Shown here: positions 4,159-43,000 of the stretch, one piece after another
Layout of the letters: every line of letters starts with the position of its first letter
How positions within the stretch are numbered: the stretch's first letter is position 1
NCBI GenBank assembly: GCA_043228905.1
Contig: JBHGNT010000004.1
Span: 5,828,001-5,892,000 of the forward strand
DNA: 64,000 nucleotides
Direction: 5' to 3'
From: Azolla caroliniana
Taxonomy: Eukaryota; Plantae; Polypodiophyta
Made by a program: the position numbers and the translations under genes
The notes under the pieces: model-generated
Told to the model about the DNA's origin: nothing
The model's database searches: none
What the model saw: the letters and a program-made list of their open reading frames with translations, nothing else

Positions 4159-4169
4159 GGTAGTCCTTT

Positions 4170-5517: not shown

Positions 5518-5628
5518 TTCTCAAGAATGTTAGGTGTTTCTTCCTTCCTATTAGATAAAGTTTGTCGGCCGGATCGACCAACCCTATTCGTAACATTTAC
5601 ATAATAGTACAAATGACACTCATGAATT

Positions 5629-6394: not shown

Positions 6395-6727
6395 TTCAGA
6401 AGAAATCCATTATTAAACTACATTTTCTCTATGTAAAGATGACTCATTTAGAATTTTTGTGATGAACAAATCAAAACAATCACATGGTAGTAGAAGTTGA
6501 TTCGAAAATAGTTTCATACACTTCTATCCTACTAACTCATTTAATATATGTGTGCAATACAAATCAAAACATTCTCATGGTAGTAGAAGTTGTTTTGAAA
6601 AAGTTTCATACACTTTAATCCTACTTAACAAAACCCATTAAATTACGTCCTCTTTTTTAGATTATTCCGAATTTGTGTGATGAATAAATAAACCCATTTA
6701 CATTATATAGAAATTGCACTTATCACT

Positions 6728-6811
6728 GGGGTGGTGGTGCAGTTGGCTAGCCCGTAGGTCTCATAGCTTTGAGAAATCCTGACTTTGAGATTTCGAGCCT
6801 CTCTCACTCCT
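6728..6811 (+). pseudogene. tRNA-Met pseudogene, copy 7
   Basis: Full length with several stem mismatches. Confidence 0.8.
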
Positions 6812-6922
6812 TTCTCAAGAATGTTAGGTGTTTTTTCCTTCCTACTAGGAGAAGTTCGTTGACCGGATCAACCAACCCTATTCTTAACATTTACGTGATA
6901 GTACAAATGACACTCATGAATT

Positions 6923-7004
6923 GGGTTGTGGTACTTTTGGCTAGCTCGTAGGTCTCATAGCCTCGACAATCATGAGGTTGAGATTTTCAGCCCGTCTCAA
7001 TCCA
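6923..7004 (+). pseudogene. tRNA-Met pseudogene, copy 8 (B subtype)
   Basis: B-subtype diagnostics. Confidence 0.8.
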
Positions 7005-7331
7005 TTCATACCAAACCCAAGAAACTACATCTTTTGTGTTAGATGGCTCATTTAGAATTTGTGTGATGCAAAATGGAAAACATTCCCATGATAATAGAAA
7101 TTCTTTTGAAAGATAGTATTACACTTCTATACCACTTAACAAACCATTAAACTACGTCGTCTTTTTTAAATTCCTCATTTCGAATTTGCATGATGAAGAA
7201 ATTAAAACATTTATAGGCTTGTAGAAACTCTGAATCTAAAAAAATGTTTGATACACTCCTCTTGTTTCTGTTGAAACACTTATATCAGATAATTCGTGTC
7301 TGTTAAGTATGATGAAATCATGATCATCAAT

Positions 7332-7413
7332 GGGGTGGTGGCGCAGTTGGCTAGCGCGTAGGTCTCATAGCTTCGAGATATCCTGAGGTCGAGAGTTCGA
7401 GCCTCTCACCCCA
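7332..7413 (+). tRNA. tRNA-Met(CAT) with intron GCTTCGAGAT, consensus except a 2-nt deletion at the T-stem/acceptor junction (copy 9)
   Basis: Matches the plant elongator tRNA-Met consensus through the T loop; CAA upstream; T6 run at 7433-7438. Confidence 0.65.
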
Positions 7414-7524
7414 ATCTCAAGAATGCCATGTGTTTTTTCCTTCCGATTAGATAAAGTTTGTCGACTGCATCGACCAACCTTATTCTTAACATTTACATGA
7501 TACTACAAATGACACTCATGAATT

Positions 7525-7608
7525 GGGTAGGTGGTAGTTTTGGCTAGCACGTAGGTCTCATAGCTTCGACAAAGCCTTAGGTTGAGATTTTGAACCCGTC
7601 TCACTCCA
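7525..7608 (+). pseudogene. tRNA-Met pseudogene, copy 10 (B subtype)
   Basis: B-subtype diagnostics. Confidence 0.8.
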
Positions 7609-7938
7609 TTCATAACAAATCTAGTAAACTACATCTTATGTGTTAGATAGCTCATTTAGAATTTGTGTGATGAACAATGGAAAACATTCACATGATAGTA
7701 GAAATTCTTTTGAAAAATAGTATTATACACATCTATACCACTTCACAAACCCATTAAATTACGTCTTCTTTTCTAAATTCCTCATTTCGAATTTGCATGG
7801 TGAAGAAATTAAAACATTTATAGGATAGTAGAAACTCTGAATCTCAAAAATAGTTTGATACACTCCGCTTGTTTATGTTGAAACATTTATATCACACAAT
7901 TAGTTTATGTTAAATATGATCAAATCACACTCATCAAT

Positions 7939-7994
7939 GGGGTGGTGGCGCAGTTGGTTAGCGCATAGGTCTCATAGCTTCGTGATATCCTTAG
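7939..7994 (+). pseudogene. 3'-truncated tRNA-Met pseudogene, copy 11
   Basis: 5' half and intron present, then fused through TTAG to the spacer sequence TTAGATGGCTCATT. Confidence 0.8.
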
Positions 7995-8404
7995 ATGGCT
8001 CATTTAGAATTTGTGTGATTAAAAATGGAAAACATTCACGTGATAGTAAAAACTCTTTTGAAAAATAGTTTCATACACTTCTATACCACTTAACAAACCC
8101 ATTAAACTACATCGTCTTCTTTTTTAAATGACTCATTTCGAATTTGTGTGATGAATAAATTAAAACATTTATAGGATAGTAGAAACTCTGAATCTCAAAA
8201 ATAGTCTGATATACTTCTCTTGTTTATGTTGAAACACTCTCAATACAGTCGGAATAAAAAATAGTCGGAATCAAAACATTCTCATGGTAGTAGAAGTTGT
8301 GTGAAAACCCATTAAATTACGTCATCTCTTTGAGATTAGTCATTCCGAATTTGTGTGACGAATAAATCAACATGTTTACATTATATAAAAGTGTACTCAT
8401 CATT

Positions 8405-8488
8405 GGGGTGGTGGCGTAGTTGGCTAGCGCGTAGGTCTCATAGCTTTGAGAAATCTTGAGGTCGAGAGTTCGAGACTCTCTCACCCCA
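8405..8488 (+). tRNA. tRNA-Met(CAT) with intron, best candidate functional copy (copy 12)
   Basis: All stems can form (substitutions give G-U pairs); A and B boxes retained; TATA-like TTATATAAAA upstream. Confidence 0.7.
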
Positions 8489-8652
8489 TTCTTAAGAAAC
8501 CCATTATTAAACTACGTATGTAAACAGATTCATACACTTCTATCCTACTTAACAAAACCTATTAAATTACTTCTTTTTTAGATTAGTCATTCCGAATTTG
8601 TGTAATGAATAAATCAACACGTTTATATTATATAGAAAGTGAACTCATCATT

Positions 8653-8736
8653 GTGGTGGTGGCGCAGTCGGCTAGAGAATAGGTCTCATAGCTTCGAGAA
8701 ATCCTGAGGTCGAGAGTTCAAGACTATCTCACCCCA
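8653..8736 (+). pseudogene. tRNA-Met pseudogene, copy 13
   Basis: Full length, CAT retained, D stem broken. Confidence 0.8.
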
Positions 8737-9054
8737 TCCTTAACAAACCCATAAAACTACGTCTTTTGTTTGTCTTTTGTTTGTAATGATGACTCATTAA
8801 GAATTTTTGTGATGAACAAATCAAAACATTTACATGGTAGCAGAAGTTCTTTTGAAAAAAGTTTCATAGACTTCTATCGTACTCATTTAGAATTTCTGTG
8901 ATGAACAATTGAAAACATTCACATGGTAGTAGAAGGTATTTTGAAAATAGTTTCATACACTTCTATCCTACTTAACAAACCCAGTATATTGCGTTTTCTT
9001 TTTTAGATTACTCATTTCGAATTTGTGTGATGAATAAATCAAAACATTACCAAT

Positions 9055-9138
9055 GGGGTGGTGACGTACTTTGCTAGTGTGTAGGTCTCATAGCTTCGAG
9101 ATATCCTGAGGCTGAGAGTTCGAGCCTCTCTCACCCCA
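9055..9138 (+). pseudogene. tRNA-Met pseudogene, copy 14
   Basis: Intact 3' half, degenerate D arm; upstream flank matches that of copy 1. Confidence 0.8.
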
Positions 9139-9249
9139 TTCTCAAGAATGCCAGGTGTTTTTTCCTTCCTATCAGATAAAGATTGTCGACCGGATCGACC
9201 AACCCTATTCTTAACATTTACATGATACTACAAATGACACTCATGAATT

Positions 9250-9336
9250 GGGTGGCTGGTGGTACTTTTGGCTAGTGCGTACGTCTCATAGCTTCGACAA
9301 ATCCTGAGGTTGAGATTTTGAGCCCTTCTCACTCCA
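9250..9336 (+). pseudogene. tRNA-Met pseudogene, copy 15 (B subtype)
   Basis: B-subtype diagnostics. Confidence 0.8.
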
Positions 9337-9663
9337 TTCATAACAAACCCAGTAAACTACATCTTCTGTGTTAGATGGCTTATTTAGAATTTGTCTGATG
9401 AACAATGCAAAACATTCACATGATTGTAGAAATTCTTTTGAAAAATAGTATTATACACGTCTATACCACTTAACAAACCCATTAAATTACGTCTTCTTTT
9501 TTAAATTCCGCATTTCGAATTTGCGTGGTGAAGAAATTAAAACATTTATAAGATAGTAGAAACTCTGAATCTCAAAAATAGTTTGATACACTCTTGTTTA
9601 TGTTGAAACTCTTATATCACACAATTAGTTTCTGTTACGTATAATGTAATCACACTCATCAAT

Positions 9664-9747
9664 TGGGTGGTGGCGCAGTTGGCGAGCATGTAGGTTTTAT
9701 AGCGTTGAGAAATCCTTAGATCGGGAGTTTGACATTCTCTCACCCCA
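9664..9747 (+). pseudogene. tRNA-Met pseudogene, copy 16 (C subtype)
   Basis: GGGAGTTTGACATTCTC T-arm variant; anticodon mutated. Confidence 0.8.
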
Positions 9748-9985
9748 TTCTTAACAAACCCATTACTAAACTATTGTATGTAAATATGACTCATTTATTA
9801 TATTTGTGATATACAAATCAAACCATTCTCATGGTAGTAGAAGCTGTTTTGAAAAAGTTTCATACACTTTAATCCTACTTAACCAAACCCATTAAATTAC
9901 GTCCTCTTTTTGAGATTAGTCATTCCGAATTTGTGTGATGTATAAATTAACACGTTTACATGATATAGAAAGTGCACTCATCAAT

Positions 9986-10069
9986 GGGGTGGTGCTGCAG
10001 TTGGCGAGCGCGTAGGTCTCATAGCGTTGAGAATTCCTTAGGTCGGGAGTTCGACATTCTCATAGCCCA
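9986..10069 (+). pseudogene. tRNA-Met pseudogene, copy 17 (C subtype)
   Basis: GGGAGTTCGACATTCTC T-arm variant; CAT retained. Confidence 0.8.
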
Positions 10070-10103
10070 TTCTTAACAAACCCATTATTAAACTATTGTT
10101 ATA

Positions 10104-26449: not shown

Positions 26450-28165
26450 AGTATAGGGAAAAGAGTAGGAGGATGAGGGAGAACGACAAGTAGGCTGGAG
26501 GAAAGGAAAAAATTGGTTCAAACTGTCAGGAATAATACTAAAGCAGAGATGGAATTAGTACTAAGAAGAGTAGTACTATTAGTACTAAGAGGACGGGACT
26601 ACATACGGTTCCCGAGAGAGGAAGTGAGAAGAGGAGAGAGAGATAGCAAGGATGAGAGAGAGAGAAAGATGATGACAGCAGCTAATATATTATGTGAAAA
26701 GATAAGTACAAAGCGGCTGAGAGGCTTAAGACTGGCGTTGAACCAATTTGGTTCAACATAATGCCTAGTGCCTTCTTTTATAGTGTTGTCAGGAGTAATC
26801 CTGAAACTTCTAGAATGTTCCAGAGAAATTTGGAATATACATTACTTTCTTATAATAAAACATAAATGAAAATAATATCCTATGAATTAAGAGCTCGACC
26901 CATATACCATAAGGTCATGGGTTCGAGTCTTGCCATATCATGACACTTGGCCTTCCGAGGCGTTGTTCCATGTTCGAACATGATTCTCTTCGACCAACAA
27001 CATGGATTGAAGGTCAAAGAAGGAGGGTGGATTCTACCGTGCTAGTACGGCGGTCCGCATCACGCCGAATCGTGGTGCAAGGCCGCCGAAACATATTTGC
27101 ACCATCTCATCATCCTCCACGTTTACGCTTATCGAGCCGAGCGAATCACAAAGCTCCTTGATCTTCAAGGTGTAGCTCGTGACGGACGTATCCCTTTGTT
27201 GGATATTATTCAACTCTTGGCGGAGTTGAAGCTTTCTCGCGATAGTGTTGGCGGCGAAAATCTTTCGTAGAATCTCCCACGCTTCCTTCCGTGTCCTGGC
27301 TTCTCGAATGTACCCGAGCATGTGGTCGTGAACACATGTCGCCAAGCAATACATCACTCGGCTTGCCGCTTGCTCCCACGTTGCATAGTCAGCGTTTTTC
27401 GGGTTGGGCCAATTTTCTTGTGCTCCTTTGATGTAGCTCCAATAGCCTTGGCCGACAAGGTATTAGTGCATCTTGTACTCCCAAGATGCAAAGTTGTTGC
27501 GATCCAACTTCTCGCTAGGGAGAGCGCTCCCCATTTGAGTATTCATTGTCGATGTAGATTTCTTCCTTTTCCTTCTCTCTCGAACACGAGCTATGTAGTC
27601 GCACTACGATAGCGATGAGCCGGTTCTTCTTGAACGTCGGCGTAGAGCACAACACACGATCACAATGAGGCGAGTGGGCTAGATCGAGCTACCAAATTGC
27701 TCTGATACCATATAAAGAATCGGGTATGATTCTTGTGTAGCGGAAGAGATGTGTGTTATGTGTATGTGTGAGAGGAATTAGAGGAGAAATGAGAGAACAC
27801 TAGATAGATAGACAAGAGAAATAAAATACTCAAGAAGGTGTATATTTCACAAGTAGAATAAGAATTACAAAATGTAGCATAATAAGGAGTCACAACCGAC
27901 TTTGTATAAAGTATGAGGAGGGTGCTTTATATAGAGTCACCCTCTCTCTTCATTAACTTTACAACAACCACTCTCTCTCTTGGGGAATGTGAAGACTCAT
28001 AGTCATGGGGAATATGTAACTCATTAGTTATGTGTCATAGAATATGATTCTATAACACATAGTTAATGTGTAGAGAGTAGTGTTGTGACTCTTGACCTTT
28101 GAGTAATCATGGATTCTCAAAAGGTGTGTTCACACGTTGCACTATGTTGAGCTTGATTCTCAACA

Positions 28166-30420
28166 GAAACATTCCAACTCGGTACATTGGCTGGCAACAT
28201 CTTGAGAAAGTGGGTCAATGGGTTTCGGTTAAAACCGTACCTCGTCCATACCCAACCCAACCCTTTCGTTGGTAAACAACACGATTGAGACCCGCCCGCA
28301 GTAGGTGAAATGGAGGATGTCGAGGTTTACTCGCCCCAATTCTGGTAATTACTCTACCTACCGCCCGAAATTGTATACTATGTGAAAAAAAAGGAGACCC
28401 ACTAAGTAAATATTTAAGGAGCATGCACAACTCACGGAAAAGAAAGTACAAACGGTTTTTCGTTGCGTGGTCTTTACACCTTATTATAGCAGGCAAGATT
28501 CTTAATCTAGGGCACAAGGCCACACCTCAAGAACTGAGGTACACACATAAAGGAAGGCATCATAAGCATAACACTCACTCACTCACAAGCACCCAAAGCC
28601 CTCAATCTCTCTTGCCTTTTGCTCAAACGCTCTCCCACTCTCAGACTCTCTACAGAGAAGCTTCTACTCGTTTCCTGTCTCCTTACCCCCACACCCACTG
28701 GAAGCATCCAAAGAACTCCACACCTAGTTAAATAGGCACGGCCTAGGTAGTTACCTCCGCGTTGTGGATGCACCTCCCAACCCCGAGGCAAAGGAGATAG
28801 GACATCGAGTGCATCCGGACACCATCACCAACAATCAGATCTGGTAGGTGCTAGGATTGCAAAGAGGAGGTGAACATGACATTGAGGCTCCGCCTCAGAG
28901 TATCCTTGAAGAACATCTTGGGGAATACTTGGTGTTTGCAAAAGCCTACCGCACACTTGGAGGGCCCAATGAATTTTTTGGAGATTTGGCACGCTTTCTA
29001 TTAGAGTTTGGTTGCATGCATGCAAACGCATACGCATGCCAAAGAAGAAGGCATGGATCATCATCGCGACATACAAAGGTGGTGCCATCGATTGGGGCAT
29101 CATCAAAGGGGAAGGAGTTCGTGTTGGCTTGTGTGCCTTTCAGGCAGGAAAACAGTTCTTGCCTGCCTTAGCACACTACCTAGTTGTGCTTTACCCTCCC
29201 CAATCCATGGCCACACCCCGCCGAACTCTCACCCTCCCCGCGTCACCCACCCATGCGAAACGCCAACGAGCTCTTTAGTTAACTCATGAGGAATGACAGG
29301 ATGACACACCGGTCTGGACCCCTACATCGCCACAGTCGATACCCAATGCCAAGACCCAGGAAGCTGAAGACAGTATCACCATTAGAGTGCATGAAAAACC
29401 TAAGTCATCTGCCTTGGTGGATAAACCGAAACTAAAATTGGCCAGCCCGCGACCGGACCACCAGGAGGTGACTCGGACAACCATGGGCAATAGCAGATAA
29501 TCCTCCGTGGAGCAACCCAAACGGCTCCACAAAGAATCAGCGGACATGCAGAGGAGCCCTGCTAAGAAACGCCGCAAGTTACAATGCCATAATGAAGATT
29601 CGGCCAAGAACCGGCCACTAGTCGTCGCTCCCAACAAAACCATAGTTGTCGTCATGGACAAGGCCTTGTCCTTAATAGGAAATACAGAGCAAGGGAAATC
29701 TTCCCGGTTCTAAGAGGAGGAAGTAATGACCTTCAAGGACTTGACCGCCAAGTCCTACAAGCTCGGTGTGATCTTACAACACGGCACGGCATACGAGCTA
29801 ATCGACTTCCTCGCTCACCTCTAGATTGTTGTCACGGCACGCATGGCTCAAGACCATGCCGAACAACAGATGATCCAACAGGCGACATCCAACAAGCTCG
29901 AATTAGACGAGGAGCCGCAACTACAAAAGATCGGCCGGAAACACGTAACCAAAACCCGATGTGCTTGGATCGAGGTACCGGACCTCAACACGGCCTTGGT
30001 CGAGGTTTACCGCGAATTGGAGAAAGCGACCCACATTTCCAAAGACATGGCGGTCAGCAGCAAACAAGCCAAAACAGCCATGGAGTTATGGCAGGCCTCG
30101 AAAAGCCGCCTGACTGAGCTTCAACACCAACTCCACAATACCGGCAACCCAACTTTCTCACCTTACCACCCCTTGTTTCCAATCCTGTCAAGGTGTCCAC
30201 ATAAACAGAGGAGCCCAACCCTCCCAAGCCAGCGGATGTGTCCACACAAACCCGACGAGCCAAACGACTCGGTACCGGCCACGGTACGGGCCCCAACCCA
30301 CAATTATGACGAAGATCTTGCGGTGCAAAGGGAGGTAGCCGAGAAAGCCAAGGAACGCTACAAAGCGACCAAAGCAAACGCAGAAACTGAAACCGGGAGA
30401 TGGCGAGAATCCACCAAGGT
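28166..30420 (+). mobile_element. Right part of the non-chromovirus gypsy relic: integrase C-terminus plus degraded extra ORF
   Basis: Removing copia A rejoins DEFNE|TFQLGTLAGNILRKWVNGFRLKPY; downstream same-strand ORF fragments at 28848-29278 and 29507-30424. Confidence 0.75.
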
Positions 30421-30612
30421 ATAAAGCCCGATTTGTAGTGAAAGGCTTTCTGCAAAAGAAGGGTGTGGATTTCGACGAAATATTTTCCCCGATTGCCTTT
30501 CTCCATGGAGATCTAGAGGAAGAGATTTACATGCAATAGTCGGAGGGATTCGTGAAGAAAGGGAAGGAGAACCTAGTATGCGGACAAAGGAAAAGCTTCT
30601 ATGGATTGAAGT

Positions 30613-31051
30613 TGTCATGATATAGCATGGTATGGCTTCAAAAAGATTTGAACCCATGACCTTGTGTCACAGGGGTTGAAGCCCTACCATTAAGCTATAC
30701 ATTGTATTATAAAGAATATTGTTTTCATTTATTATTTCACTTAGGAAATCCATGTATATTGTAGATTTCTCTGGAACATTCTAGAAATGTCAAGAGTACT
30801 TCTAAGCACACTATAAAAAGAGGCACAAGGCATTATTGAGAACCAATTCGGTTCAACGCTAGTCTTAAGCCTCTTAGTTGTTCTTGTATCCTTCTTCATA
30901 TAACATAATATACTTCTCATTGTCAACATTCTCTCTCTCTCTCTCTCTCTCTCGTGATTCTCATACTCTCTTTCCCTTCTTAGCACTAATCCTCATTCTC
31001 CTCCTCTATCTTTAGTACTAATTCTCCTTGCCTCTAGTACTATCCTTGACA
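30613..31051 (+). mobile_element. Solo LTR of the chromovirus C/D family
   Basis: TGTCATGA...TGACA ends; TSD GAAGT/GAAGC; reverse-complement homology to the C and D LTRs. Confidence 0.92.
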
Positions 31052-32112
31052 GAAGCAAGCATCTCGGCAATGGTACCAGAAGTTCAAATCCTCCATGGTG
31101 GATCACAGCTTCAACAAGACACAAGCTTATCATTGTGTCTTTGTTAAGAAATATGATGGAGAAGACTTTCTCATCCTCCTATTGTATGTTGATGACATGC
31201 TAATTGTTAGACAGGACTTGAAGAAAATTGGATGCGTGAAGAAGGCCTTGAGCAAATCTTTTACCATGAAGGATATGAGTACGACAAAGCAAATCTTGGG
31301 AATGCACATTGTCCGAGATAGGAAAAAGAGATTGTTGTGGTTGTCACAAGAGAAGTATGGGACGAAGGTGCTCTAGTGATTTAGCATGGAAAACGTGAAA
31401 CCGGTCAGCTCGACACTGCTGACAAACTACAAGTTGATTAGAGGCCAATGTCCAAAGACGAAAGCGGAGAAAACTAAGATGAACAAGATCCCATATGCCT
31501 CAACGGTCAAAAGCCTAATGTATGCAATGATGTGCACTAGGCTGGAAATTGCTTACGTTGTCGTAGTTGACTGGTTCATGAGCAACCCCAGAAAGGAGCA
31601 CTAGGCCGCAATAAAATGGATATTTCAGTACCTGAGAGGCACCTCGAGCGTGTGCCTCTGATTCAGTTCGGGTAACCCCACATTAGAAGGATTCTGTCAG
31701 GAACAGTACTAAGACAGAGAAGGAATTAGTACTAAAAGAAGTATTAGTACTAAGAGAGGTAAAGAACTCTCGAGAGAAGGAAAGAGTGAGTGAGAGGGAG
31801 GGGGAGAGAGAGAGAGTGAGAGAGTGATGATAAGAAAAGATATATATTATGTGAAGAAAATGTACAGTAGCTAGGAGGCTTAAGACTGGCGTTGAACCGA
31901 TTTGGTTCGAAATAATGCCTTGTGCCTCCTTTTATAGTGTTCTAAGGAATACTCCTGAAGTTTCTAGAATGTTCCAGAGAAATCTAGAATATACATCAAT
32001 TTTCTATAATAAAACATAAATGAAAATAATATTCTATGTATTACAATGTATAGTCTAATGGTCGAGACCTCGACCCATGTAGTATAAGGTCATGGGTTCG
32101 AGTCTTGCCATA

Positions 32113-35100
32113 TCATGACACTATCCCCCCTTTAAAACGATGAGTGTAACGAGTCGTTTTGGATTGAGAACCCGGTTTGTCTGCATATTGACGATGGAAG
32201 TCTTCAAGAAGAGCACGAGCATTGGTGACATTCTCTATCGGTTCCCAAGTACGCTCGCTGGGACTATATCCTAGCCAGTCGACTTGATAGTAGAGCTTGT
32301 TGCGAACAAGCTTGGAATCAAGGATGGCGGCAACCTCATACTCAGGTCCAACTTCAAGCTCGATCGGGGGTGGAGGCTGTGTAATACGTCCTAGGATGGT
32401 GCTTTCTTGATAGGGTTCGAGGAGAGAACTATGAAACACCGGATGTATCCGAAGTTGTGGAGGTAGATCAAGACGAAAAATGATATCATTAATCTTTCTA
32501 ATAATACGGAAAGGACCTAATCGCCGATAATCCAACTTCTCGCATGGGTGAGTAGTCTTGATGTGTCGTCGGAGTAGCCATACCCGATCTCCAATGTTAA
32601 AACTAGATGGGAGTCGATGACGATCCGCATAAACCTTGTGTGTTTGTTGAGCTTGTTGGAGATGAGTAGATAAATCCGCTTGTATCTTGCGTAACCTCTC
32701 CAAACGATCCTCTGCGCAAGGATTTGTGGACACCTCTGGGGTTTCAAGTACACACCACCGGGGGTGACATCCCGTATAAGCATAAAATGGTGTAACTTTC
32801 GTGGATGCGTGGATAGAGTTGTTATAGGCAAATTCGGCGAAGTGGAGAATATCTGCCCAGTCATCCTGATGATAGCTGAGAAAGCACCGCAGATACTGCT
32901 CCAGCGTTTGATTGGTTCGTTCAGCTTGGCCGTCGGTTTGTGGGTGGTAGCCGGAGGAGAGGTTACAAGTGACCTTGAGCATGTTAAAAAGGTGCTTCCA
33001 GAATTTTGACATGAACTGGGGTCCACGGTCGCTGATGATACTATCGGGAAGTCCATGATGCCGACATACTTCACGCATGACAATTTCGGCAGTGTCTTCA
33101 CTGGAGATCTCCTTAATACATGGCAAGAAATGAGCCATCTTCGTATATCGATCGACCACCGTTAGAATCGCATTGAACCCCTTAGAGACTGGAAGATCTG
33201 TGATGAAGTCTAGAGCAATGGATTGCCACGGCTTGCTTGGAATTGGTAATGGTTCTAATAAACCATATGGATGATGCCTTGGCATTTTCGCTCTGCAGCA
33301 TGTATCACAAGTCCGAACAAAATCCTCGACAAATTGTCGCATACAGGGCCACCAGAAAGATTGTTGTACTGAATGTAGTGTTTTAGTACTACCAAAATGC
33401 CCAGCTGTATATGTGTCATGACAGTTTTGTACTACTTGAAGGCGGCAACAACCATTAGGAACATACAAAAGTTCTTTAAAGAAGAGTAATCCATCATGGT
33501 ATTTGAATTGCCGATAGTCCGTACCTGATGGTTGCGACTGTGAACACGACGCTCGAGAGGGATAAATTTGTGCTAGTATAGCTTGGGCGAATGCATCTGT
33601 CTTCAAGTCTTTGCGTATGGTATCGATAACGCAGGAATCCATGGGCATGTCAAATATCTTTGTTGCTTGTAGTCGTGCCGATCCCAAGATGACTTGTTTT
33701 CTGTTATCGAAAGCTGGCTCGCCGGGACAGGGTGCTAGGTACGAACGTTGTGATAATGCATCGGCCTTCCCTTGGTGCTTCCCCGGACGATATGTAATTT
33801 TGAAGTCGAAACGCGTGAGGAAGTGGGCCCACCGAGCGTGACGTCGATTCAACACACGAGCATCCTGAAAGTAAGTAAGGTTCTTGTGGTCACTAAATAC
33901 GGTGACCGGATGAGAGGATCCCTCCAAAAAATGCCTCCATTGCATAAAAGAATCCACTATTGCCAATAGCTCCTTATCATGAATTTCGTAGTTGATTTTG
34001 GCAGCGTCAAACTTGCGTGAGTGAAAAGCTACAGGATGTGGCTTCTCATCATTCCCCTGTTGTGACAGAATGCTCCCCAATGCAAAATCCGATGCGTCAG
34101 CTTCGATAATAAATGGTTTTTCTGGATCGACATGAGCTAGAATTGGAGCCGATCTAAATGCCTTTTTCAAACTCTCGAAAGCCACGTCCGTTTCTTCAGA
34201 CCAAATGAACGGTTGTCCCTTCCTGGTAAGTTGTGTGAGAGGTAGAACGATCTTTGAGTAATCTTGTGTGAACTTCCGGTAAAAATTGGCAAAGCCTAGG
34301 AAGCATTGCACATCTCGCACCGAACGTGGAGTCTGCCATTCTACCACCGTTTTGACCTTAGCTGGGTCCATGGAGATGCCTTCTGACGAAATGATGTAGC
34401 CGAGAAATTCCACTTGGTTGCACCCGAAACTACATTTTTCCAGCTTTGCATATAGACCATGTTCTCGAAGTCGTTTTAGTACTAATAGTACATGAGAATC
34501 ATGTTCTTCTTGGGTCTTTGAATAAACCAGTAGATCATCCATATGGATGATCAAACAATCATCCAATAGATCTCGGAATATATCATTAGCCATGTGCTGG
34601 AAGACTGTCGGTGCATTAGTGAGGCCGAACGGCATGACCGTATACTCGAAGTGCCCATATCTGGTGCGAAACGCGGTCTTCCATTCGTCTCCTGGTCGGA
34701 TCCATACGAGGTTATATGCTCCCCATAAGTCGATCTTCGTGAAGAACCTGGCACCATTGATCCGTTCTAAAAGACTTGAGATAAGGGGAAGAGCATACCT
34801 ATTCCTGATTGTAACCTTATTCAGGCCACGGTAATCTACAACAAGACGAAGCGATCCATCCTTTTTCTTGACGAAGAAAATGGGCGCGCTGGCTGGATAT
34901 TTCGAATGCCGGATGAAACCATTTTCCAAATTCTCCTCTATATAGGCCTGAAGGACTTCTAGCTCGGTTGGTGACAAATTGTAGATCGGTCCCCATGGCG
35001 GCTCTTTTCCCGGTTGTAAATCGATGGGGCAATCGTACGGTCGATGATGAGGAAGTGTGTTGGATTGTACTTTATCGAACACATCGGCGTAATGACGATA

Positions 35101-35670
35101 CTTCTCGGGAAGTTGAACGGTGGATCCTTCTTTAGTGGTGCTGGAGGGGTTTACTGATATTGCAAAGAGGAACATTTCCTCCTTGTGCCCTTCTTTACGC
35201 AACTGACGTAGCGAAATGGTTGCCATCTTCTGAGTTGACCCTTGGGTTTGTCGACACCGGATTTCTCTTGTTCTCCAATCTATGTCTGGGTTATGTAACT
35301 CGAACCACGGTAATCCTAAAACTATGGGATGTTCTGGGATACTAATAATATTAAATGATACTACACATGCTAAGTTATCTAGGACAATATTAATGGGCTC
35401 TGACTCTTCTATGATATTTACAGAAGCAATGGGATGTCCATCAATGACTACTATAGAGGCTGGACACTGGAGTTTTCTTAGGGATATCTTATGAGCTTGA
35501 GCAAATTTCTTATCCATAAAGCAAGAGTTAGCTCCGGAATCTAGGAGTGCTAGGACATATACTAGAGGGGTACTTTTAGTACTAACTATTACTTGGGCTA
35601 CGAACACATCACTAACTTGCTTAGAGGGAATGGAACCACTAATGGGCTGCACAGATCTAGGGCTGTCCAA
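32113..35670 (-). CDS. Element D pol polyprotein (protease, RT, RNase H, integrase, chromodomain)
   Basis: Open 1185 codons; LLDSGA, RT motif reads HMDD, EADAS, HHCC, DDE, LGPF, EYEVAAILDS..WLGY..TWEP; frame stays open upstream to the slippery site at 35709. Confidence 0.93.
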   Translation of the reverse strand: MDSPRSVQPISGSIPSKQVSDVFVAQVIVSTKSTPLVYVLALLDSGANSCFMDKKFAQAHKISLRKLQCPASIVVIDGHPIASVNIIEESEPINIVLDNLACVVSFNIISIPEHPIVLGLPWFELHNPDIDWRTREIRCRQTQGSTQKMATISLRQLRKEGHKEEMFLFAISVNPSSTTKEGSTVQLPEKYRHYADVFDKVQSNTLPHHRPYDCPIDLQPGKEPPWGPIYNLSPTELEVLQAYIEENLENGFIRHSKYPASAPIFFVKKKDGSLRLVVDYRGLNKVTIRNRYALPLISSLLERINGARFFTKIDLWGAYNLVWIRPGDEWKTAFRTRYGHFEYTVMPFGLTNAPTVFQHMANDIFRDLLDDCLIIHMDDLLVYSKTQEEHDSHVLLVLKRLREHGLYAKLEKCSFGCNQVEFLGYIISSEGISMDPAKVKTVVEWQTPRSVRDVQCFLGFANFYRKFTQDYSKIVLPLTQLTRKGQPFIWSEETDVAFESLKKAFRSAPILAHVDPEKPFIIEADASDFALGSILSQQGNDEKPHPVAFHSRKFDAAKINYEIHDKELLAIVDSFMQWRHFLEGSSHPVTVFSDHKNLTYFQDARVLNRRHARWAHFLTRFDFKITYRPGKHQGKADALSQRSYLAPCPGEPAFDNRKQVILGSARLQATKIFDMPMDSCVIDTIRKDLKTDAFAQAILAQIYPSRASCSQSQPSGTDYRQFKYHDGLLFFKELLYVPNGCCRLQVVQNCHDTYTAGHFGSTKTLHSVQQSFWWPCMRQFVEDFVRTCDTCCRAKMPRHHPYGLLEPLPIPSKPWQSIALDFITDLPVSKGFNAILTVVDRYTKMAHFLPCIKEISSEDTAEIVMREVCRHHGLPDSIISDRGPQFMSKFWKHLFNMLKVTCNLSSGYHPQTDGQAERTNQTLEQYLRCFLSYHQDDWADILHFAEFAYNNSIHASTKVTPFYAYTGCHPRWCVLETPEVSTNPCAEDRLERLRKIQADLSTHLQQAQQTHKVYADRHRLPSSFNIGDRVWLLRRHIKTTHPCEKLDYRRLGPFRIIRKINDIIFRLDLPPQLRIHPVFHSSLLEPYQESTILGRITQPPPPIELEVGPEYEVAAILDSKLVRNKLYYQVDWLGYSPSERTWEPIENVTNARALLEDFHRQYADKPGSQSKTTRYTHRFKGGIVS

Positions 35671-35696
35671 CCAAATGGCTCCTATTTTGGCTGGAC

Positions 35697-36848
35697 TTAG
35701 TCGTTTAACTCTTCTTCTAACTGACTAAGGACATCAAATCTATTTGCTAGATCTGGGCTATTAGTACTATTAGGACTATCAGATATCCCTACTGAAATAG
35801 GCTCGGGTTTAGTACAATTAGAACTAGCGACTATTTGGTTTACCTGTCTTCTTGGCCTATGGGGGCAATTTATTGCAATATGTCCTGGTCCACCGCAGTA
35901 AAGACATAGTCGATTTGTACGGCGTCGCTGCTTTTCTTCTTCAGATAATGGCCCTCGACAACGTGTAGTGTCAATCTCCATCGGAGTCGGAGTATTCGCT
36001 GGAGGCGCATTATATGACTCCCTTGGAAAAGGTCTTGCTACCACTGAGGTGTAGGTGGGCTCTAATCTTGCCCTCGGCATCTGTAGTTGTCGTTCCGAAT
36101 GTCGCTCAAAGAGGCGGTTGTCACATCTCACCGCGCGACTGATTGCTTCTGTTAAGGACTTTGGCTCTTCGGGGAAGGTCAAGAGTAAATCATTGACGTC
36201 GTTGCGTAAACCATAACGGAATTGCTCCATCAACGCTTGATCATCCCAAGGGATATCAGCGGCGAGTAGGCGAAAATCTGCAGCATATGCGGAGGCTGGA
36301 CGGTCACCCTGGCGTAATCGCCAAATTTTGTTGATTGCGGTCCTGATGCTGTTAGTATCTCCGAAACATGCTTTAAACTCACCTAGAAACTCTTCAAAAT
36401 TGTTGAGTAACAGGGATTCCTTTTCTAATAGTGGAGTAAACCATGCCAACGTTGAGCCACTTAACAAAGTGCCTACTAAACCCACTCGTGATGCATCGGT
36501 GGGATATCGGGAAGGATGCATTTGAATAACTAATCGTACTTGGTTAAGGAACCCTCTAAATTGCGATCGCGTTCCATCGAACTTCGTGGGAAGGCCAATC
36601 TTGGGTTCTTTATGAATCCCTTGTGTTCCGAGCCCTTGTTGTTGCATCGCTACAATGGTTGCTTCGAGTTGTTGCACGCGTAACGCAAGTTCCCCATGTT
36701 GTTGTTGCGTTTGCTGCTTTTCTAAGGAGATTTGTTGAAGATCCCCCAACAACCGTTGGTTTTCTTGTTCCAAAGCATGGAACTTCTCTTTCAAGCATTG
36801 AAATTCCGAGAAAACAGATTGATATTCTTCAGCGCTAACAGTGGCCAT
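35697..36848 (-). CDS. Element D gag (coiled coil, capsid, CCHC knuckle)
   Basis: 383 aa; KFDGTRSQFRGF, QFRYGL, PTPMEID, CLYCGGPGHIAINC. Confidence 0.93.
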   Translation of the reverse strand: MATVSAEEYQSVFSEFQCLKEKFHALEQENQRLLGDLQQISLEKQQTQQQHGELALRVQQLEATIVAMQQQGLGTQGIHKEPKIGLPTKFDGTRSQFRGFLNQVRLVIQMHPSRYPTDASRVGLVGTLLSGSTLAWFTPLLEKESLLLNNFEEFLGEFKACFGDTNSIRTAINKIWRLRQGDRPASAYAADFRLLAADIPWDDQALMEQFRYGLRNDVNDLLLTFPEEPKSLTEAISRAVRCDNRLFERHSERQLQMPRARLEPTYTSVVARPFPRESYNAPPANTPTPMEIDTTRCRGPLSEEEKQRRRTNRLCLYCGGPGHIAINCPHRPRRQVNQIVASSNCTKPEPISVGISDSPNSTNSPDLANRFDVLSQLEEELND

Positions 36849-37651
36849 GGGATGAAAGAAAAGAGGAATAAGAGATTAGTAGGAAATGAGAGAGACAGAA
36901 GGTAGGAAAACCGGTTCAAACTGTTAGGAACAGTACTAAGATAGAGAAGGAATTAGTACTAAAAGAAGTATTAGTACAAAGAGAGGTGAAGAACTCTCGA
37001 GAGAAGGAAAGAGTGAGTGAGAGGGAGGGAGAGAGAGAGAGTGATGATAAGAAAAGATATATATTATGTGAAGAAAATGTACAGTAGCTAGGAGGCTTAA
37101 GATTGGCATTGAACCAATTTGGTTCGAAATAAGGCCTTGTGCCTCCTTTTATAGTGTTCTAAGGAATACTCCTGAAGTTTCTAGAATGTTCCAGAGAAAT
37201 CTGGAATATACATCAATTTTCTATAATAAAACATAAATGAAAATAATATTCTATGTATTACAATGTATAGTCTAATGGTCGAGAGCTCGACCCATGTAAT
37301 GTAAGGTCATGGGTTCGAGTCTTGCCATATCATGACTGATTCACTAATTAAGACATGTCAGTTGATGAGGATACCAGCCAATCCACATCCGGATATGTGA
37401 CAACGTTTGTAGGAGGAACCATTTCGTAGCAGTTGTGGCTCTTTTAAGCACATAAGCCGAATACATGGTTGTCGTCGAAACCGGCAAGGAAGTTATATGG
37501 ATGAAGGAGTTTATCGAAGAGCTGGGAATTCGGCAAGAAGAATTCTGACTCTACTATGATAACCAAAGTGCCATCCACCTTGTGAAGAATGTCGCCTACC
37601 ACTCGAGGACCAATCACATCCAGAGGAGATACCATTGGCTTCGGGAAAGGG

Positions 37652-37867
37652 TGTCATGGACATGACAACAGACATGTCATTATTCGAACTCTTGAACTAT
37701 TGTATTGTAATTAATTGATATGTTTTAACCAACAGATCCAATACATAGTCATGTTACCTTAGTAGTATCTAATCTATCTTGTGTTTCTCCTCTTCTCTCT
37801 TTCCTCTCACTCATACACATAACATACATCTCTTTCGCCACACAAGAATCATACCCGATTCTTTACA
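37652..37867 (+). mobile_element. LTR remnant related to the copia A LTR U5 end, opposite orientation to A
   Basis: Ends ACACAAGAATCATACCCGATTCTTTACA, the reverse complement of 12396 onward. Confidence 0.7.
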
Positions 37868-38684
37868 GGTAGCAACTATGCAACTCTTGCCATTGACCGA
37901 TGTAATGGGGTGCAAGCAAGTGGTAGTTTCCATAGATTCCTAAACCCTTACTAATTGTGGCTATAATTATATTCATGAAGATGGGTTGTTGGAAGGGCAA
38001 GCAAATTGGCTATCTAGCTCATCATCACTTTAGAATTATTCATGATGTATTACCTTTGCCATGTTTGATAAGTGGAATGAAAGATGGAAATGCATTCATT
38101 CTGGAACCATTGGCAAAAAGTAGGAAAATGGAATCAAAATTGCCAATGTTTTTTTAAATCCAAGTGATGTCATGGAATGTTTTGGAGTTAGACGACCCCT
38201 TATATAGATGATACAAAAAATGGTCTCTGACAAGAAATTACTAAATGTTTAGTGGGAGGATGTCTAGACTTTCTTTTATTTAACCAACATCACTTAAATG
38301 CTTTCAGAATATCCCATTATGGATCTCTTCTTTCAAGAAATTGGGACGGGATTGGGACATGTTTTGGTTCCCACAATAGGTGACTCGGAAGTCTGTGGTG
38401 GTGTATGTATGGCTATTGCCTAGAGGCAGGTTCCATTCATTATCCAAAAGCAATTGAATATCAATGGCAGGGCCCAATTTATTATTGTACAAAAAGAAGA
38501 AAGTACTTGGGGACCCTTGAATGTATATGATCCTAATATTGCATGTGCTTGAAAACAATTTTGGCAAGATTTACTAAATACTTTACCTCCACTTCATCAT
38601 TGGTGTATCACTGGTGATTTCAACATGATTGAGGATCCCCTTGATAGAGTGGGAGGTAGCTCAACATTGATACATGGACATGAA

Positions 38685-39887
38685 TGTTAAAGACAAAAGT
38701 AAAACTAAACTACAAGAACTTACTAGTAGGAGCAATGACGTGATTGGCAAACGCAAAAGAGCGAATATCATTAATTGGTGTTGTTCACCTTGAATTCATT
38801 CAAGGTGAACTCAAATATTTTTACTAAGTGGCATGCATACATGTTGCAAGCATGTGATACAATAGAGCATGTATGGTTATCACAATGTACTGCCTGTGTT
38901 ATCACTTTGTTCATTGAGGTTGGATTTGGAAAATTTAATAATAATTTTTTTATGTCACCTCTCAATCCCCAACGGAATTGATCATGTAGGGCTTGGTCGC
39001 CCCACCCCACGTCATAGGAAATTTGTCGGAGGTGTAGGTGGATGACTCCTGATTACCTTGCTATACTGAATAGATATTCGCGAGAGCAGCTCATTGTTGA
39101 TCCGTCTCCCCAAAAGTAGCTTCAAACTCAATGAGAAAAGCGGTGATGTCGTTTCCAACAAGGGAGTGAACCACGCCTCTGCTAGTCCCGTCAATAGAGA
39201 ACCCAAGAGACCGACCTGGTGGGAACTTGTGGTGTAACGACGGGGTTATAGGCGGATGATGAGGCAGATTTGATTAAGGACCCGTGAGCGTGTTCCATCG
39301 AACTTATCGGGAAGGCTGACCTTGGGTTCATAGTAGGGTGTCTTGGTATGGTGGTGGTGGGTTGAGTGTGATAGTTGGGGTAAGCGAGGATGTGGCAAAC
39401 TAAAGCTCAAGTAAGGGTAGCATTCTTGGCTTGGAGTTGTTCCGAAGCTGCGAGTATTTGAGGTAGGCTATCGGTAGGATCATCCATGGCTTTCGATGTG
39501 AGGTTAACTGAGAGAACGATAAGGAAGGTGAACAAATTGTTAAAGATAGAAGTAAAACGAAACTAGAAAAACTTACTAGCAAGAGCAAGCGCAGAAAAGC
39601 GAATATCATTAATTGGTGTTGTTCACCTTGAATTCATTCAAGGTGAACTGAAATATTTATACTAAGCGGCATGCATACTTGTTGCATGCATGTGATACAA
39701 TAGAGCATGCATGTGCCAAGTGTAAATAATACAAGGGAGCAATTATGCCATGATGCTAGCTAAAAAACTATAAGGAGCAATTGTACATGACTGTATACTG
39801 GATATGTTGGTTAACACATAACACTTGATTATAACACAAGAGCCCAAGAGTTTGAATCTTGACATGTCCGCTGGCATGTCCGTAACA
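38685..39887 (-). mobile_element. Internally deleted chromovirus-like gypsy element F (second family)
   Basis: Perfect TSD ATGAA; 5' LTR 39538-39887; partial 3' LTR 38685-~38870 fused to gag; gag fragments WGDQALHDQFRWGLRGDIK and LPDKFDGTRS. Confidence 0.85.
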
Positions 39888-40044: not shown

Positions 40045-43000
40045 TGTGGTGTCCCTTGGATGAAAGTTCATGCCTTCATGTTGGGTATGCATGTGTTCCT
40101 TTGTGCCCCTTTTAGCATACCCTTGTTTAGCATGCATGCCTTCATGCTATGGTGCACATGTGTTCCGTTGAGCCACCCTTTTAGCATACCCTTGTTAGGA
40201 CGCATGTAGCTAAGTAAAGCCAACCCAAATGGGTACCTTTGTACGACTATAAATTGAATAGGAAGTAAGAAGCTAAGCAAGCTGGTTTGGATTCCATTTA
40301 TGTGCATTTCACATAATTGGTGGAGAAGCTGAGTAAAATTTTAGCCACTATCACCTCGTTCATGGCGTCCCAATTCCCTCCCGTTGTTGTCGAAGTCGAT
40401 ACCCCTATGTAATCTGAGCTCCCGCAACCTCTTGAGCGGCCACCCCCCTTCCAAATGGAGCAACTCCTTCAAGTCCTCTCCAACGTCATGCTTCAAATCA
40501 GCCACACGAACCAAGCTATGCTCTCCTTCCTCTCCGCTATCAACGATCGGTCTCCACATCAGCCAGATTCCAAGGTTCGCCCAAAGTCCTTCTCCGGCTT
40601 GCCCTTTGAGGACGTCTTAGCATGGTTGGATCAATTTGAGATGATCTCAAGTTACCACAAATGGTTTGACGAGCGCAAGGCTTTGGAAGTTCGCACCTTG
40701 CTGGAAAATGTCGCCGCCACTTGGTACGTACAACAAGCCAACGAAGTGACGGAGAACTGGATGATCCTTTGGGATCTCCTTGTGCAAAACTTCGCCCATC
40801 AAAATTCGGCCCAGACGGCATTACAACAACTCGAGATGTTGCAGCAGCAAGCGCACAAACCAGTAGGCCAATTTGGTGTTCGCCTAAATCAGCTCCTTGT
40901 CTGTGCCGATCCAACCATGCCTGAGCATGTCAAGCTTTTCTTCTTATGGCCCCGTATGCGCCCTAACATCACTCGTCGTGCCCGGGACCAAGGTCCCAAG
41001 ACCTTCAACGATGCGATCCTCATTGCCCAACACATCGAAGCTTGTACGCTATCTTACTCCCAACCACGATGGCCCCCTCCACCATCGACCGACTTGCGCG
41101 CGCAATACCAAGGAGCAACCCCATGGACATTGACGTCCAAAACGTGCAGACGCAGACTCACCGAAACCTTCCTAATCATGACGCCCAAGGACGCCCGAAG
41201 TGTTTCTACTGCCACAATTATGGACACGTCCGATGTTATTGCCGGAAATTGCAACAACAATCTCACAAGCAGCAAGCCCAGATAACCATGGCTGACACAA
41301 CATCATTGGCTGAGCTTTCGGGAAACTAACTTCCGAGGTACTGATGGAAGAGCCAGCCCCCCACATCCAAGCATCCGCCTCTTCTAGTTCACAGGTATGC
41401 ACCACTCTCACCACCATTAATCACTCCACACACACCATCCTATTAGACTCTAGTAGTAGTATCTCTTCAATTAGCACCGCCTTAGTTCACCAATTAGGCC
41501 TCTCCCCACAACCACCGCTCCTTCCATCCAAGTCCTTTTTTGCGATCACCAACATCTATACCACTCTCGCATGCAAGCCATGCACCGTTACCTTAGGCAC
41601 TCTCACATTCTCACACCACTTTTATGTCTTGCCCCACCAACTCTTCCCCCTCACCTTAGGTTGCGATTGGCTCCTCAAGCGTCACACTATGATTGATTTC
41701 GATGCTCACAAACTGATTGTCCCACAAGCTCCCCCTATCCCTCTCCTACACAATAGCCCCCATGTCCCCCACCTCAACCAAGTCTAGGTGGCCCTCAATC
41801 CCAAGGAGCGGTTAATCTCCGTCCGCCAATTGTTAGCTCGTTTTCTGTCACTAGCCCCCCAACCCACGCATGCCGCTACTGTCTCTTTCCCGGTACAACA
41901 TATCATTCGTACCGGGGACACCGCTCCCATCCGCATGGCTACACGCCGACATTCCCCCCTCGACCACAATCGCATCGATGCTACCGTCACCGATATGCTC
42001 ACCAAAGGTATTATCTGTCATGAAGACAACATTTTGGTTATCAAGAATCGAACCCACAGCTTCTTGGTCTATGTGTTGAACCCTTAACCATTGTAATAAC
42101 ATATATGTTGTGTGATTATAATAATTATGTTTCTAGTTATTACAAGATATTAGAATATTCTAGAACATTCTTGATTATTCTAGAACATCCTTTAATATTT
42201 CATGATTATATTTCTTATCATAAAATATAAAATATTTTAGAACATTCTAGATTACTCCATAAGGACCTATAAATAACTGTCTATACATTCGTTTCAACTC
42301 ATTCAGTTCAACACCAGTCTTTAGCCCTTAGCCTACTCATTGTAATCTTGTTTCATCATAATATAATCTCATTTCTATTTCAAGTCTTATCTCTCTCACT
42401 CTCTCTCTCTTTCACACGCACACACACACACCCTCTCTCTTTTGCTCTCACTCTTGCTCTCACTCTATCTTCTACCCACGAGTCTCGACATTATCATTCC
42501 TTCCACCAGCGATTGGGTTTCGGAACCCCGCCTCATCAAGAAGGATGATGGCACCTTCCGCTTCTGCATTGACTTTAGGCCTCTCAACAAAGTGACGATC
42601 CATGACCTCTACCCACTCCCTCGCGTGGACGACCTCTTGGACCAGCTCAGGGGCTCCCGTTATTTCACCTCCCTTGACTTAGCCTCGGGATATTGTCAGA
42701 TCCCCTTAAAGTCATCTAACGCCCACAAGACCGCATTCCGCACACAACGCAGGTTGTTCCAGTTCACCCGCATGCCGTTTGGCCTGTCTAATGCCGGCAA
42801 CACATTCCAACGCATGGCAAACTCCATCTTTGCCAGCCTTATCAGTAAAGGCGTCCTCCTCATTTATCTCGACAACATCCTTATCCACACTGCCACTTGG
42901 GAGGATCATCAACAAACTCTCGCTGAAGTCCTCGCTTGCATAACTAAGCATAACTTGCAACTCCAATGGAAGAAGTGTCGATGGGGAATCCGTATGGACC

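Follow-up and report, generated by a model that had tools for sequence, protein, structure and literature searches.

At both ends of element D, an LTR retrotransposon in the analysed stretch of Azolla caroliniana DNA (64,000 nucleotides, here called the window), the LTR tip carries sequence resembling the internal promoter of a tRNA gene, facing away from the element. The locus raises the question of what this module is: a tRNA gene, a promoter, a binding site or a relic.

Element D and its mode of priming

Element D was intact, and its parts are given below.

31695-37337, minus strand: element D, a chromovirus of 5.6 kb with gag and pol open, flanked on both sides by the target-site duplication GATTC
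31695..32120, minus strand: 3' LTR
31930..31936, minus strand: TATA box of the Pol II promoter; the tip is 184 nt away
31957..31974, minus strand: four alternating GAA/TTC units between the module and the TATA box, which we take to be heat-shock-element-like
32113..35724, minus strand: pol open reading frame (protease, RT, RNase H, integrase, chromodomain)
32121..32133, minus strand: polypurine tract (PPT), overlapping the end of pol
35697..36875, minus strand: gag open reading frame, with a CCHC knuckle
36904..36921, minus strand: primer site of the self-priming type; 12 bp of it are complementary to R of the element itself, 26-45 nt beyond the TATA box
36922..37337, minus strand: 5' LTR, with the module on the plus strand (A-box 37268, B-box 37312) facing flanking DNA

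The domain order of D was that of Ty3/gypsy elements, with the chromodomain C-terminal. This domain is of the group I type; its Y/W/Y aromatic cage residues aligned with those of Clr4, and its nearest relatives were Clr4/SUV39H1/HP1-type domains. Named homologues of D were fungal and vertebrate Tf1/sushi-type elements. D is called Tcn1-like on the basis of its features, the 30-row tree having held no named Tcn1 reference.

A duplex of 11-12 bp between the site for primer binding (PBS) and R was predicted in five of the six elements tested (D, C, F, L002 and L004; the sixth was A, whose LTR is deleted there). The matching changes in these duplexes were family-specific. Judged from such pairing, D-clade elements are self-priming and a tRNA primer is not needed. 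Use of the module as a tRNA primer in cis was ruled out by this self-complementary PBS.

The tRNA-like module at the U3 tip of D

The existence of tRNA-like boxes at the U3 tip was confirmed. In the 3' LTR of D the module consists of the following parts.

32006..32050, plus strand: stretch rich in A+T (87%), upstream of the A-box; the putative TFIIIB position
32051..32061, plus strand (antisense to the element): A-box-like motif, tRNA positions 8-19, agreeing at 7 of 7 scored positions
32087..32091, plus strand: AGGTC, equivalent to tRNA variable-loop positions 44-48
32095..32104, plus strand: B-box-like motif, tRNA positions 52-61, 16 nt from the tip (32120)

A preliminary description of this DNA had reported the module at six places, at the U3 tip and directed away from the element, with about 16 nt between B-box and terminus in D. 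All six were present in the sequence, and the orientation, position and distance were as claimed. The same description had noted a paired GTCT/AGAC D stem. This stem exists in the copy at 32044..32120, but is copy-specific: it depends on a C at 32068 that is absent from the other LTR of D, and that was the minority letter in two of the three sequencing runs covering the position (another letter made up 99% of the depth in X1, 93% in X17, which is probably a DNA run, and 34% in X11).

The spacing between the boxes of D (G19 to G53) was 35, as in an intron-less tRNA. On a score built from near-invariant tRNA positions, the D module reached 25.1 bits in the antisense direction versus 5.8 in the sense direction; two genuine tRNA genes among the fetched loci (L051 and L121) equalled it in both score (25.1) and spacing (35). 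Matches of at least 24 bits numbered three in the window (both LTRs of D and the solo LTR at 30613), which represent two independent insertions; 20 shuffles of the window gave 0.05 per window. When the LTRs were dinucleotide-shuffled one by one (150 shuffles, floor 0.007), p was at most 0.033 for nine of 11 module-bearing tips; the C and F tips were not significant in this comparison.

Other LTRs carrying the module

The module recurred in seven LTRs of the window, and its orientation was antisense in all 11 module-bearing tips. The copies outside D were as follows.

26524..26945, minus strand: 5' LTR of element C; B-box retained at 26920-26929, A-box deleted
30613..31051, plus strand: solo LTR; module on the minus strand, 30697-30645
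37652..37780, plus strand: F/L005-type LTR, truncated; module on the minus strand, 37740-37681
39538..39887, minus strand: 5' LTR of the deleted element F (38685-39887, target-site duplication ATGAA); module 39799-39858, box spacing 40
42016..42490, plus strand: divergent solo LTR (target-site duplication TTATC); module on the minus strand, 42098-42045

The A-box had been described as lost in C, and only the B-box at 26920 was indeed found there. The F module, previously called weak, scored 25.1 bits with the Rfam tRNA model, below the gathering score of 29 (E 0.72). The LTR at 37652 is a seventh copy, absent from the earlier list. Three module-bearing insertions lie within one Copia copy, 643 and 314 nt apart. 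The window also holds an array of tRNA-Met genes.

Among loci chosen by pol protein alone, the module was found in 4 of 14 scored LTR tips. A 20.9-bit match in locus L106, 135 nt past the end of pol, lay in non-LTR-looking sequence and was taken as chance. The module probably originated by antisense capture of a tRNA gene, or of a tRNA-derived SINE, into U3.

Search for a tRNA, a fold and a terminator

ARAGORN, run on the window and 54 loci, did not call the modules as tRNAs, nor did the Rfam tRNA model, run on the window, nine loci and 32020-32135. The preliminary description had proposed a tRNA-model search as a check, and the D module (32020-32135) went uncalled in it. Stem positions paired in 18/63 (acceptor), 24/36 (D), 22/45 (anticodon) and 19/36 (T) cases, none above 2000 shuffles (p 0.98, 0.32, 0.72 and 0.10, respectively). 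A functional tRNA gene was ruled out, because the acceptor, D, anticodon and T stems do not pair into a cloverleaf. A long non-cloverleaf hairpin was also rejected, the RNAalifold consensus of seven sequences (-2.2 kcal/mol) being too weak.

Some sequence features of a type 2 Pol III promoter were present: an A-box and a B-box at tRNA spacing, and A+T-rich DNA upstream. The 45 nt upstream of the A-box were 67-87% A+T, exceeding the rest of U3 in eight of nine assessable copies. A CAA start motif was visible by eye in D-type copies only, and was dropped as a conserved feature. No conserved oligo(T) terminator was found in the 10 copies: the first T4 occurred at +0, +12, +19 (inside the LTR), +52, +58, +70 and +120, and none lay in the stretch read in three copies.

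These observations bear on the view that the module is a working Pol III promoter. Antisense RNA from the 3' LTR would then cross the PPT and the end of pol and damp or time transposition, or Pol III traffic would damp the divergent Pol II promoter. Both boxes and the A+T-rich upstream DNA are kept, as a transcribed gene requires, and the first T4 of D (32157, in agreement with the earlier reading) lies 36 nt outside the LTR, beyond the PPT. The cross-family conservation given below fits this view equally well. Neither the position of the terminator nor the RNA fold is conserved, however. The antisense-RNA variant put forward in the preliminary description is weakened, because the distance from the B-box to the first T4 is anything from 0 to more than 120 nt, or no T4 occurs in the stretch read. 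We regard a selected Pol III product as unlikely.

Conservation of the boxes across families

The module was compared among five pol-linked families (D and L002-L005), giving 10 pairs that are not independent. A-box positions were identical in 40/50 comparisons and B-box positions in 56/60 (80-93%). AGGTC (positions 44-48) matched in 50/50 and is identical in all five families. The controls were far lower: 7/30 at positions 11-13, 36/120 and 39/140 (28-30%) in inter-box DNA compared in ungapped registers, and 66/200 upstream. The T-stem positions between AGGTC and the B-box were identical in 25/70. Fourfold-degenerate pol sites, at 463/1351 (34%; random 0.27), were near saturation. Between D and C, identity was 48% at fourfold sites versus 77% over the LTR; synonymous sites therefore overstate LTR decay, and inter-box DNA is the fairer control.

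When 10 LTR tips were aligned with gaps, the columns without variation were almost confined to TGGT, GTT-A and the LTR end. The spacing from G19 to G53 was 34-35 in eight of 10 copies, so it does not vary freely, as had been allowed for; the distance from B-box to tip ranged over 16-40.

The contrast between boxes and flanks, on which the preliminary description had made its idea depend, was clear across the five families and missing within the D family. There, subject to contig-edge and mapping bias, positions with a variant of at least 4% numbered 4/11 in the A-box, 2/10 in the B-box, 11/33 between the boxes and 0/16 tipward. In this young family the boxes are thus not visibly more conserved than neighbouring positions. 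The B-box variants were those of its CpG (11% C>T in run X1). Depth peaks over the B-box were discarded as evidence, since contig edges and copy-specific differences confound them.

Plant-like related families without the module were also found (L006, the sister of L005, and L007, L009, L011 and L100), so the module is not essential. Such sister families, the decayed C and F copies and the lack of contrast within the D family would suit a relic under no selection, left by a SINE or tRNA gene that inserted into U3 long ago. Yet the boxes remain 80-93% identical in the very families whose flanking and inter-box DNA is at random level, and we consider a relic very improbable. The earlier statement that the boxes, unlike the arms, persist is supported by these figures. 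Since the boxes are conserved, the inter-box DNA is at random level and the stems pair like shuffles, the pattern speaks for selection at the level of DNA, on a TFIIIC site, and not on a tRNA fold.

A putative outward barrier at the LTR tip

The explanation that we prefer, tentatively and at somewhat less than even confidence, is that these LTRs carry outward-facing, tRNA-derived A/B boxes kept as a TFIIIC/TFIIIB site, which would act as a chromatin barrier between the flank and the Pol II promoter. The boxes are likely to bind the tRNA-gene transcription factor, and they may protect the promoter of the element itself against silencing. TFIIIC would bind the A/B boxes at the U3 tip, and the bound complex would maintain a patch poor in nucleosomes upstream of the TATA box, at a distance of 100-200 nt. 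Such a patch could keep a copy transcribable after the chromodomain has steered it into heterochromatin; a short Pol III transcript, if any, would be a by-product. In yeast, tRNA genes and TFIIIC sites are barriers, a function "not described in plants" according to the accessible part of one source (PMC13578239). The likeness lies in an A/B-box site bordering a unit that would need shielding from heterochromatin. The yeast barriers described in the available text sit at fixed loci and consist of host tRNA genes or B-boxes, whereas those proposed here are mobile, element-borne and putative (PMC13578239, PMC9540200). The C copy without an A-box counts against a barrier. The perfect conservation of AGGTC, outside the textbook B-box, is also left unexplained by it.

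AGGTC is better accommodated by pairing than by a textbook promoter. On the sense strand, the 3' U3 of the genomic RNA would be complementary to the T and D arms of a host tRNA, and could bind it for packaging, dimerisation or strand transfer. In Ty3, as far as the accessible text goes, the bipartite primer binding site includes a complement to the T-psi-C and D arms of the primer tRNA in U3 of the genomic RNA, which leaves an antisense tRNA-like imprint as seen here (PMC5371799). L005 and the tRNA-Met genes of the window also have 15 nt in common, from variable loop to T loop. Ty3 is tRNA-primed, whereas the present elements are self-primed and retain only promoter-type positions; priming on their own RNA (PMC6317226, in the part available) leaves no attached tRNA to bridge. 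Moreover, the free T-stem positions between AGGTC and the B-box would break a long duplex with any single tRNA, and pairing needs no fixed spacing of 34-35. We hold tRNA pairing to be quite improbable.

A role in integration is improbable as well. Here the module would be a TFIIIC/TFIIIB landing pad for Pol III-targeting elements, of its own family or others, or would tether the cDNA end to Pol III-rich chromatin. Ty3, Ty1 and Tj1 do insert upstream of Pol III genes (PMC7175516, accessible part), and the clustering within the Copia copy is in keeping with such a role. But no LTR terminus stood upstream of the A-box in any of the 11 module-bearing LTRs, the LTR at 37652 is joined at a point other than an LTR end, and neighbouring insertions had no fixed upstream distance. 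The window LTR families had no match inside the tRNA-Met array, and the flanks beyond the tip were diverse (agreement 0.36-0.37).

Extending the barrier explanation to the wider group is a possibility that we hold with more doubt. Autonomous chromoviruses of non-seed plants would each carry their own outward tRNA-type barrier at the LTR tips, gained perhaps twice, which would reconcile aiming at heterochromatin with transcription.

Comparison with known elements

The preliminary description had called the module a candidate for an undescribed system. This is too strong, because tRNA-derived A/B boxes in LTRs have been published for the Helenus TRIMs, which it did not name (TRIMp3; Kojima 2024, PMC10886601). 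In the part of that paper available to us, as here, the tRNA-derived sequence occupies both LTRs, the tRNA is neither functional nor the primer, and Pol III activity is inferred only. Conservation centres on the A-box (TRGCY, YGG) and the B-box (GGTTC), in likeness to the present module. The differences are several. Helenus elements are non-autonomous and about 0.3-1.3 kb long, as against autonomous 5.6-kb gag-pol carriers with their own TATA box, and their PBS is tRNA-primed, as against a self-complementary one. For Helenus-1_SMo and two ToGe families, the tRNA-derived part lies in the middle of the LTR in sense orientation, and transcription of the element is ascribed to it; the present module occupies the U3 tip in antisense and is unable to make genomic RNA. 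The Helenus screen covered only TRIMs below 1000 bp, and "not a few LTRs" in Repbase are said there to have tRNA-like parts.

The same source, in its accessible part, describes the Cassandra and Ajax TRIMs, which likewise have carried a captured Pol III promoter in their LTRs over the long term. That promoter is of type 1 (5S rRNA) and sense, in non-autonomous elements, and in Cassandra it drives the element's own transcript (PMC10886601). The Tcn1 clade (Tf1/sushi group) resembles D in its Ty3/gypsy order, aromatic-residue chromodomain, self-priming and LTRs of about 440 bp; its plant members are known from mosses and Selaginella, and a tRNA-like LTR promoter is not among the features described in the accessible portions of the sources (PMC6317226, PMC2864245, PMC3350952).

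An antisense tRNA promoter at the U3 tip of autonomous elements was not found in print in the searched literature, which was thin on subscription journals, Repbase notes and bioRxiv supplements. A mosquito "tRNA-like" match proved to be a SINE-like insertion at the PBS (PMC3286476). Contigs of prokaryotic genomes yielded 41 stray loci of retrotransposons; none belonged to the D clade, and a clear module at the tip was seen in none. A viral protein scan gave one distant locus; seven matches to the PPT/LTR-junction pattern in viral contigs were taken as chance and not used.

The module runs counter to the expectation, in the accessible part of the Helenus paper (PMC10886601), that autonomous partners are driven solely by Pol II promoters, and it bears on how heterochromatin-seeking retrotransposons escape silencing. 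If the wider form of the barrier explanation is true, a Pol III barrier would have been demonstrated in plants for the first time, and thousands of such sites, solo LTRs included, would be scattered through the genome. Direct testing is made possible by a high-copy LTR with a compact, selected A/B pair, together with natural copies (C) and sister families (L006) that lack boxes.

Detection of the antisense module

Tips were scored at 15 near-invariant tRNA positions, with the D loop and the spacing left flexible. The tRNA consensus behind this score agrees with the motifs in PMC10886601. All coordinates at which the preliminary description had placed the module (a tRNA-type A-box and B-box at the outer U3 tip of the LTRs, facing away from the element) were confirmed in the sequence, and a seventh copy was found at 37652, in a truncated LTR. 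The maximum score, 25.1, was reached by both LTRs of element D, the solo LTR at 30613 and the relative L004; real tRNA genes in two fetched loci (L051 and L121) likewise scored 25.1. In the window, three matches scored 24 or more and five scored 19 or more; the corresponding figures per shuffled window were 0.05 and 0.75. The sense strand of module-bearing tips scored at most 5.8. The module is thus real. The paired D stem once ascribed to it does not hold as a general feature: the 5' LTR of D has G at the equivalent of 32068, a position at which another letter made up 99%, 93% and 34% of the depth in sequencing runs X1, X17 and X11, respectively.

Element D and its probable clade

The window consists of nested plant LTR retrotransposons adjoining a tRNA-Met gene array.

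31695-37337, minus strand: element D, with a GATTC duplication on both flanks
4049-4158: 5' LTR of element A, only ~110 bp, with module, TATA box and self-primer all deleted
4830-10100: tandem intron-containing tRNA-Met genes and decayed copies, four called by ARAGORN and Rfam; no match to the window LTR families inside the array
30384-37870: the solo LTR at 30613, D and 37652, three module-bearing insertions lying within ~1 kb of a single Copia RT/RNase H region

The gag and pol frames of D are open, and alignment of its two LTRs shows 13 differing positions. The aromatic residues are present in the C-terminal chromodomain, which is closest to Clr4, SUV39H1 and HP1-type domains. Just behind their 5' LTR, D, C, F, L002 and L004 have a sequence complementary over 11-12 bp to the R region of the same element, ~26-45 nt beyond the TATA box, and the duplexes carry matching changes specific to each family. 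No such duplex was found in A, whose LTR is deleted at that place. According to the available parts of PMC6317226, PMC2864245 and PMC3350952, a chromodomain and self-priming mark the Tcn1 clade of mosses and club-mosses. D-type elements carry these marks, a placement by features, the tree having no named reference. The D family is high-copy, with 2755-4853 contigs per run over 321 nt in all four DNA runs, under three organism labels.

In the available parts of PMC10886601, Helenus, Ajax and Cassandra, short non-autonomous TRIMs, have Pol III promoters in their LTRs, and other Repbase LTRs are also said to hold tRNA-like parts. The tRNA-like part of Helenus is sense and mid-LTR in the entries compared, whereas that of D is antisense and at the U3 tip; D falls outside Helenus on autonomy, orientation and priming. 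The suggestion of an undescribed system therefore stands only in part: Pol III promoters in LTRs are known, but the antisense U3-tip form in autonomous elements was not found in the incompletely covered literature (including parts of PMC4551931, PMC3832253, PMC9540200, PMC7175516, PMC3286476 and bioRxiv 10.64898/2026.03.01.708851). Comparisons by sequence turned up nothing similar.

Spread among families

Relatives were fetched by pol protein only, so that LTR content was not a criterion; they comprised 79 metagenome loci (from the best 80 of 592), one viral locus and 41 loci from genome contigs. The 3' LTR tip was placed and scored in 14 of the metagenome loci (from the best 80 of 592). Among these, four carried the antisense module (L002, p 0.007; L003, 0.026; L004, 0.007; L005, 0.007; per-LTR dinucleotide shuffles) and ten did not (p 0.07-1.0). 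The tips of L006, L007 and L100, read after the 14, also lacked it. When all 121 loci (822 kb) were scanned with a threshold of 17 bits, tip matches appeared in L002, L004 and L005 and scattered matches elsewhere.

A 30-row RT-RNase H tree placed D, C, A, L002, L003 and L004 in one starred group (100/99), in which at least the B-box was present in all five assessable members. L005 lies in a different group, with the module-less L006 as its sister and L007 and L011 next to them; the base of the tree is open. This separation would fit either a single gain and later losses or two gains. In L007, L009 and L011, plant-like relatives without the module, short tandem repeats fill U3 instead.

It may be noted that an antisense A/B-box-like match of 21.9 bits lies inside pol of A and a close relative (window 2290-2347, plus strand; L002:6343, minus strand). 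It is absent from D and C, and is probably due to chance or driven by the protein. The fungal-type locus L069 has a 20.9-bit A/B-like match twice (1574 and 2111, 537 nt apart). Short contigs with eukaryotic Ty3/gypsy pol occur in many prokaryotic genome records (L088-L128), probably through binning contamination.

Conservation of the boxes

In 10 pairs among D and L002-L005, which come from few families, are not independent of one another and were anchored on the boxes, identity was 80% at A-box and 93% at B-box positions, 100% at positions 44-48 (AGGTC) and 83% at the LTR end. It was 23% at positions 11-13, 30% and 28% in the inter-box DNA, 36% at T-stem positions, 33% in the upstream 20 nt, and 34% at fourfold-degenerate pol sites (random, 27%). 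Across families the boxes are far more alike than the DNA flanking them, and a gapped alignment of 10 tips gave the same pattern. Eight of 10 copies had a G19-G53 spacing of 34-35, and in F and 37652 it was 40; the B-box lay 16-40 nt from the tip. Stems in nine copies paired no better than shuffles and the consensus fold was weak, in keeping with the earlier view that the boxes persist while the arms do not. A selected, putative TFIIIC-type site at the LTR tips is therefore quite probable, and a neutral relic scarcely credible.

The comparison with pol is limited by the faster decay of synonymous sites than of LTRs generally: D and C were 48% identical at the former vs 77% over the LTR. Within the D family, positions varying at 4% or more showed no contrast between boxes and neighbours (A-box 4/11, B-box 2/10, inter-box 11/33, tip side 0/16); CpG decay in the B-box reached 11% in X1. 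Such a result would be expected if copies mostly decay after insertion and selection acts via active lineages only, and does not count as support.

Promoter context and proposed role

In the 5' LTR the module separates the flanking DNA from the Pol II promoter, whose TATA box lies 184-277 nt from the LTR tip. Between module and TATA box, 7 of 10 module-bearing LTRs examined have 3-6 alternating GAA/TTC units, which we take to be heat-shock-element-like (e.g., window 31957-31974, L002, L005); such runs occurred in none of three module-less LTRs. The Pol II promoter of these LTRs may be induced by heat or stress.

Upstream of the A-box, A+T content was 67-87%, richer than the remaining U3 in 8 of 9 assessable copies; in plant tRNA genes TFIIIB binds such a stretch (PMC13578239, in part). 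What is kept is thus the TFIIIC-read positions, the box spacing and the A+T-rich upstream stretch. The terminator is not conserved: the first T4 lay at +0 to +120, and none occurred within the stretch read in 3 of 10 copies. With neither fold nor terminator conserved, a functional antisense RNA or damper is unlikely. The module cannot make genomic RNA, since it is antisense and lies outside the TATA box; nor is it needed for priming, as the elements self-prime. An integration landing pad or tether is quite improbable, since no upstream LTR terminus was present in 11 module-bearing LTRs read.

Retention of boxes, spacing and A+T-rich stretch, loss of fold and terminator, no role in genomic RNA or priming, and placement outside the Pol II promoter together lead us to favour, tentatively, occupancy over a product. 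TFIIIC/TFIIIB would be bound at the 5' LTR tip, between flanking DNA and the Pol II promoter, and could act as a barrier or nucleosome-poor anchor outside the TATA box and the GAA/TTC units. A group I chromodomain directs MAGGY to heterochromatin (PMC3350952, in part). The barrier model does not account for the invariant AGGTC. Pairing of the sense RNA with a tRNA, as in the U3 of Ty3 (PMC5371799, in part), is the sole reading that would easily explain it, and by this analogy is conceivable though quite improbable. AGGTC also occurs in Helenus-1_SMo, as far as its source was available, and in the L051 tRNA.
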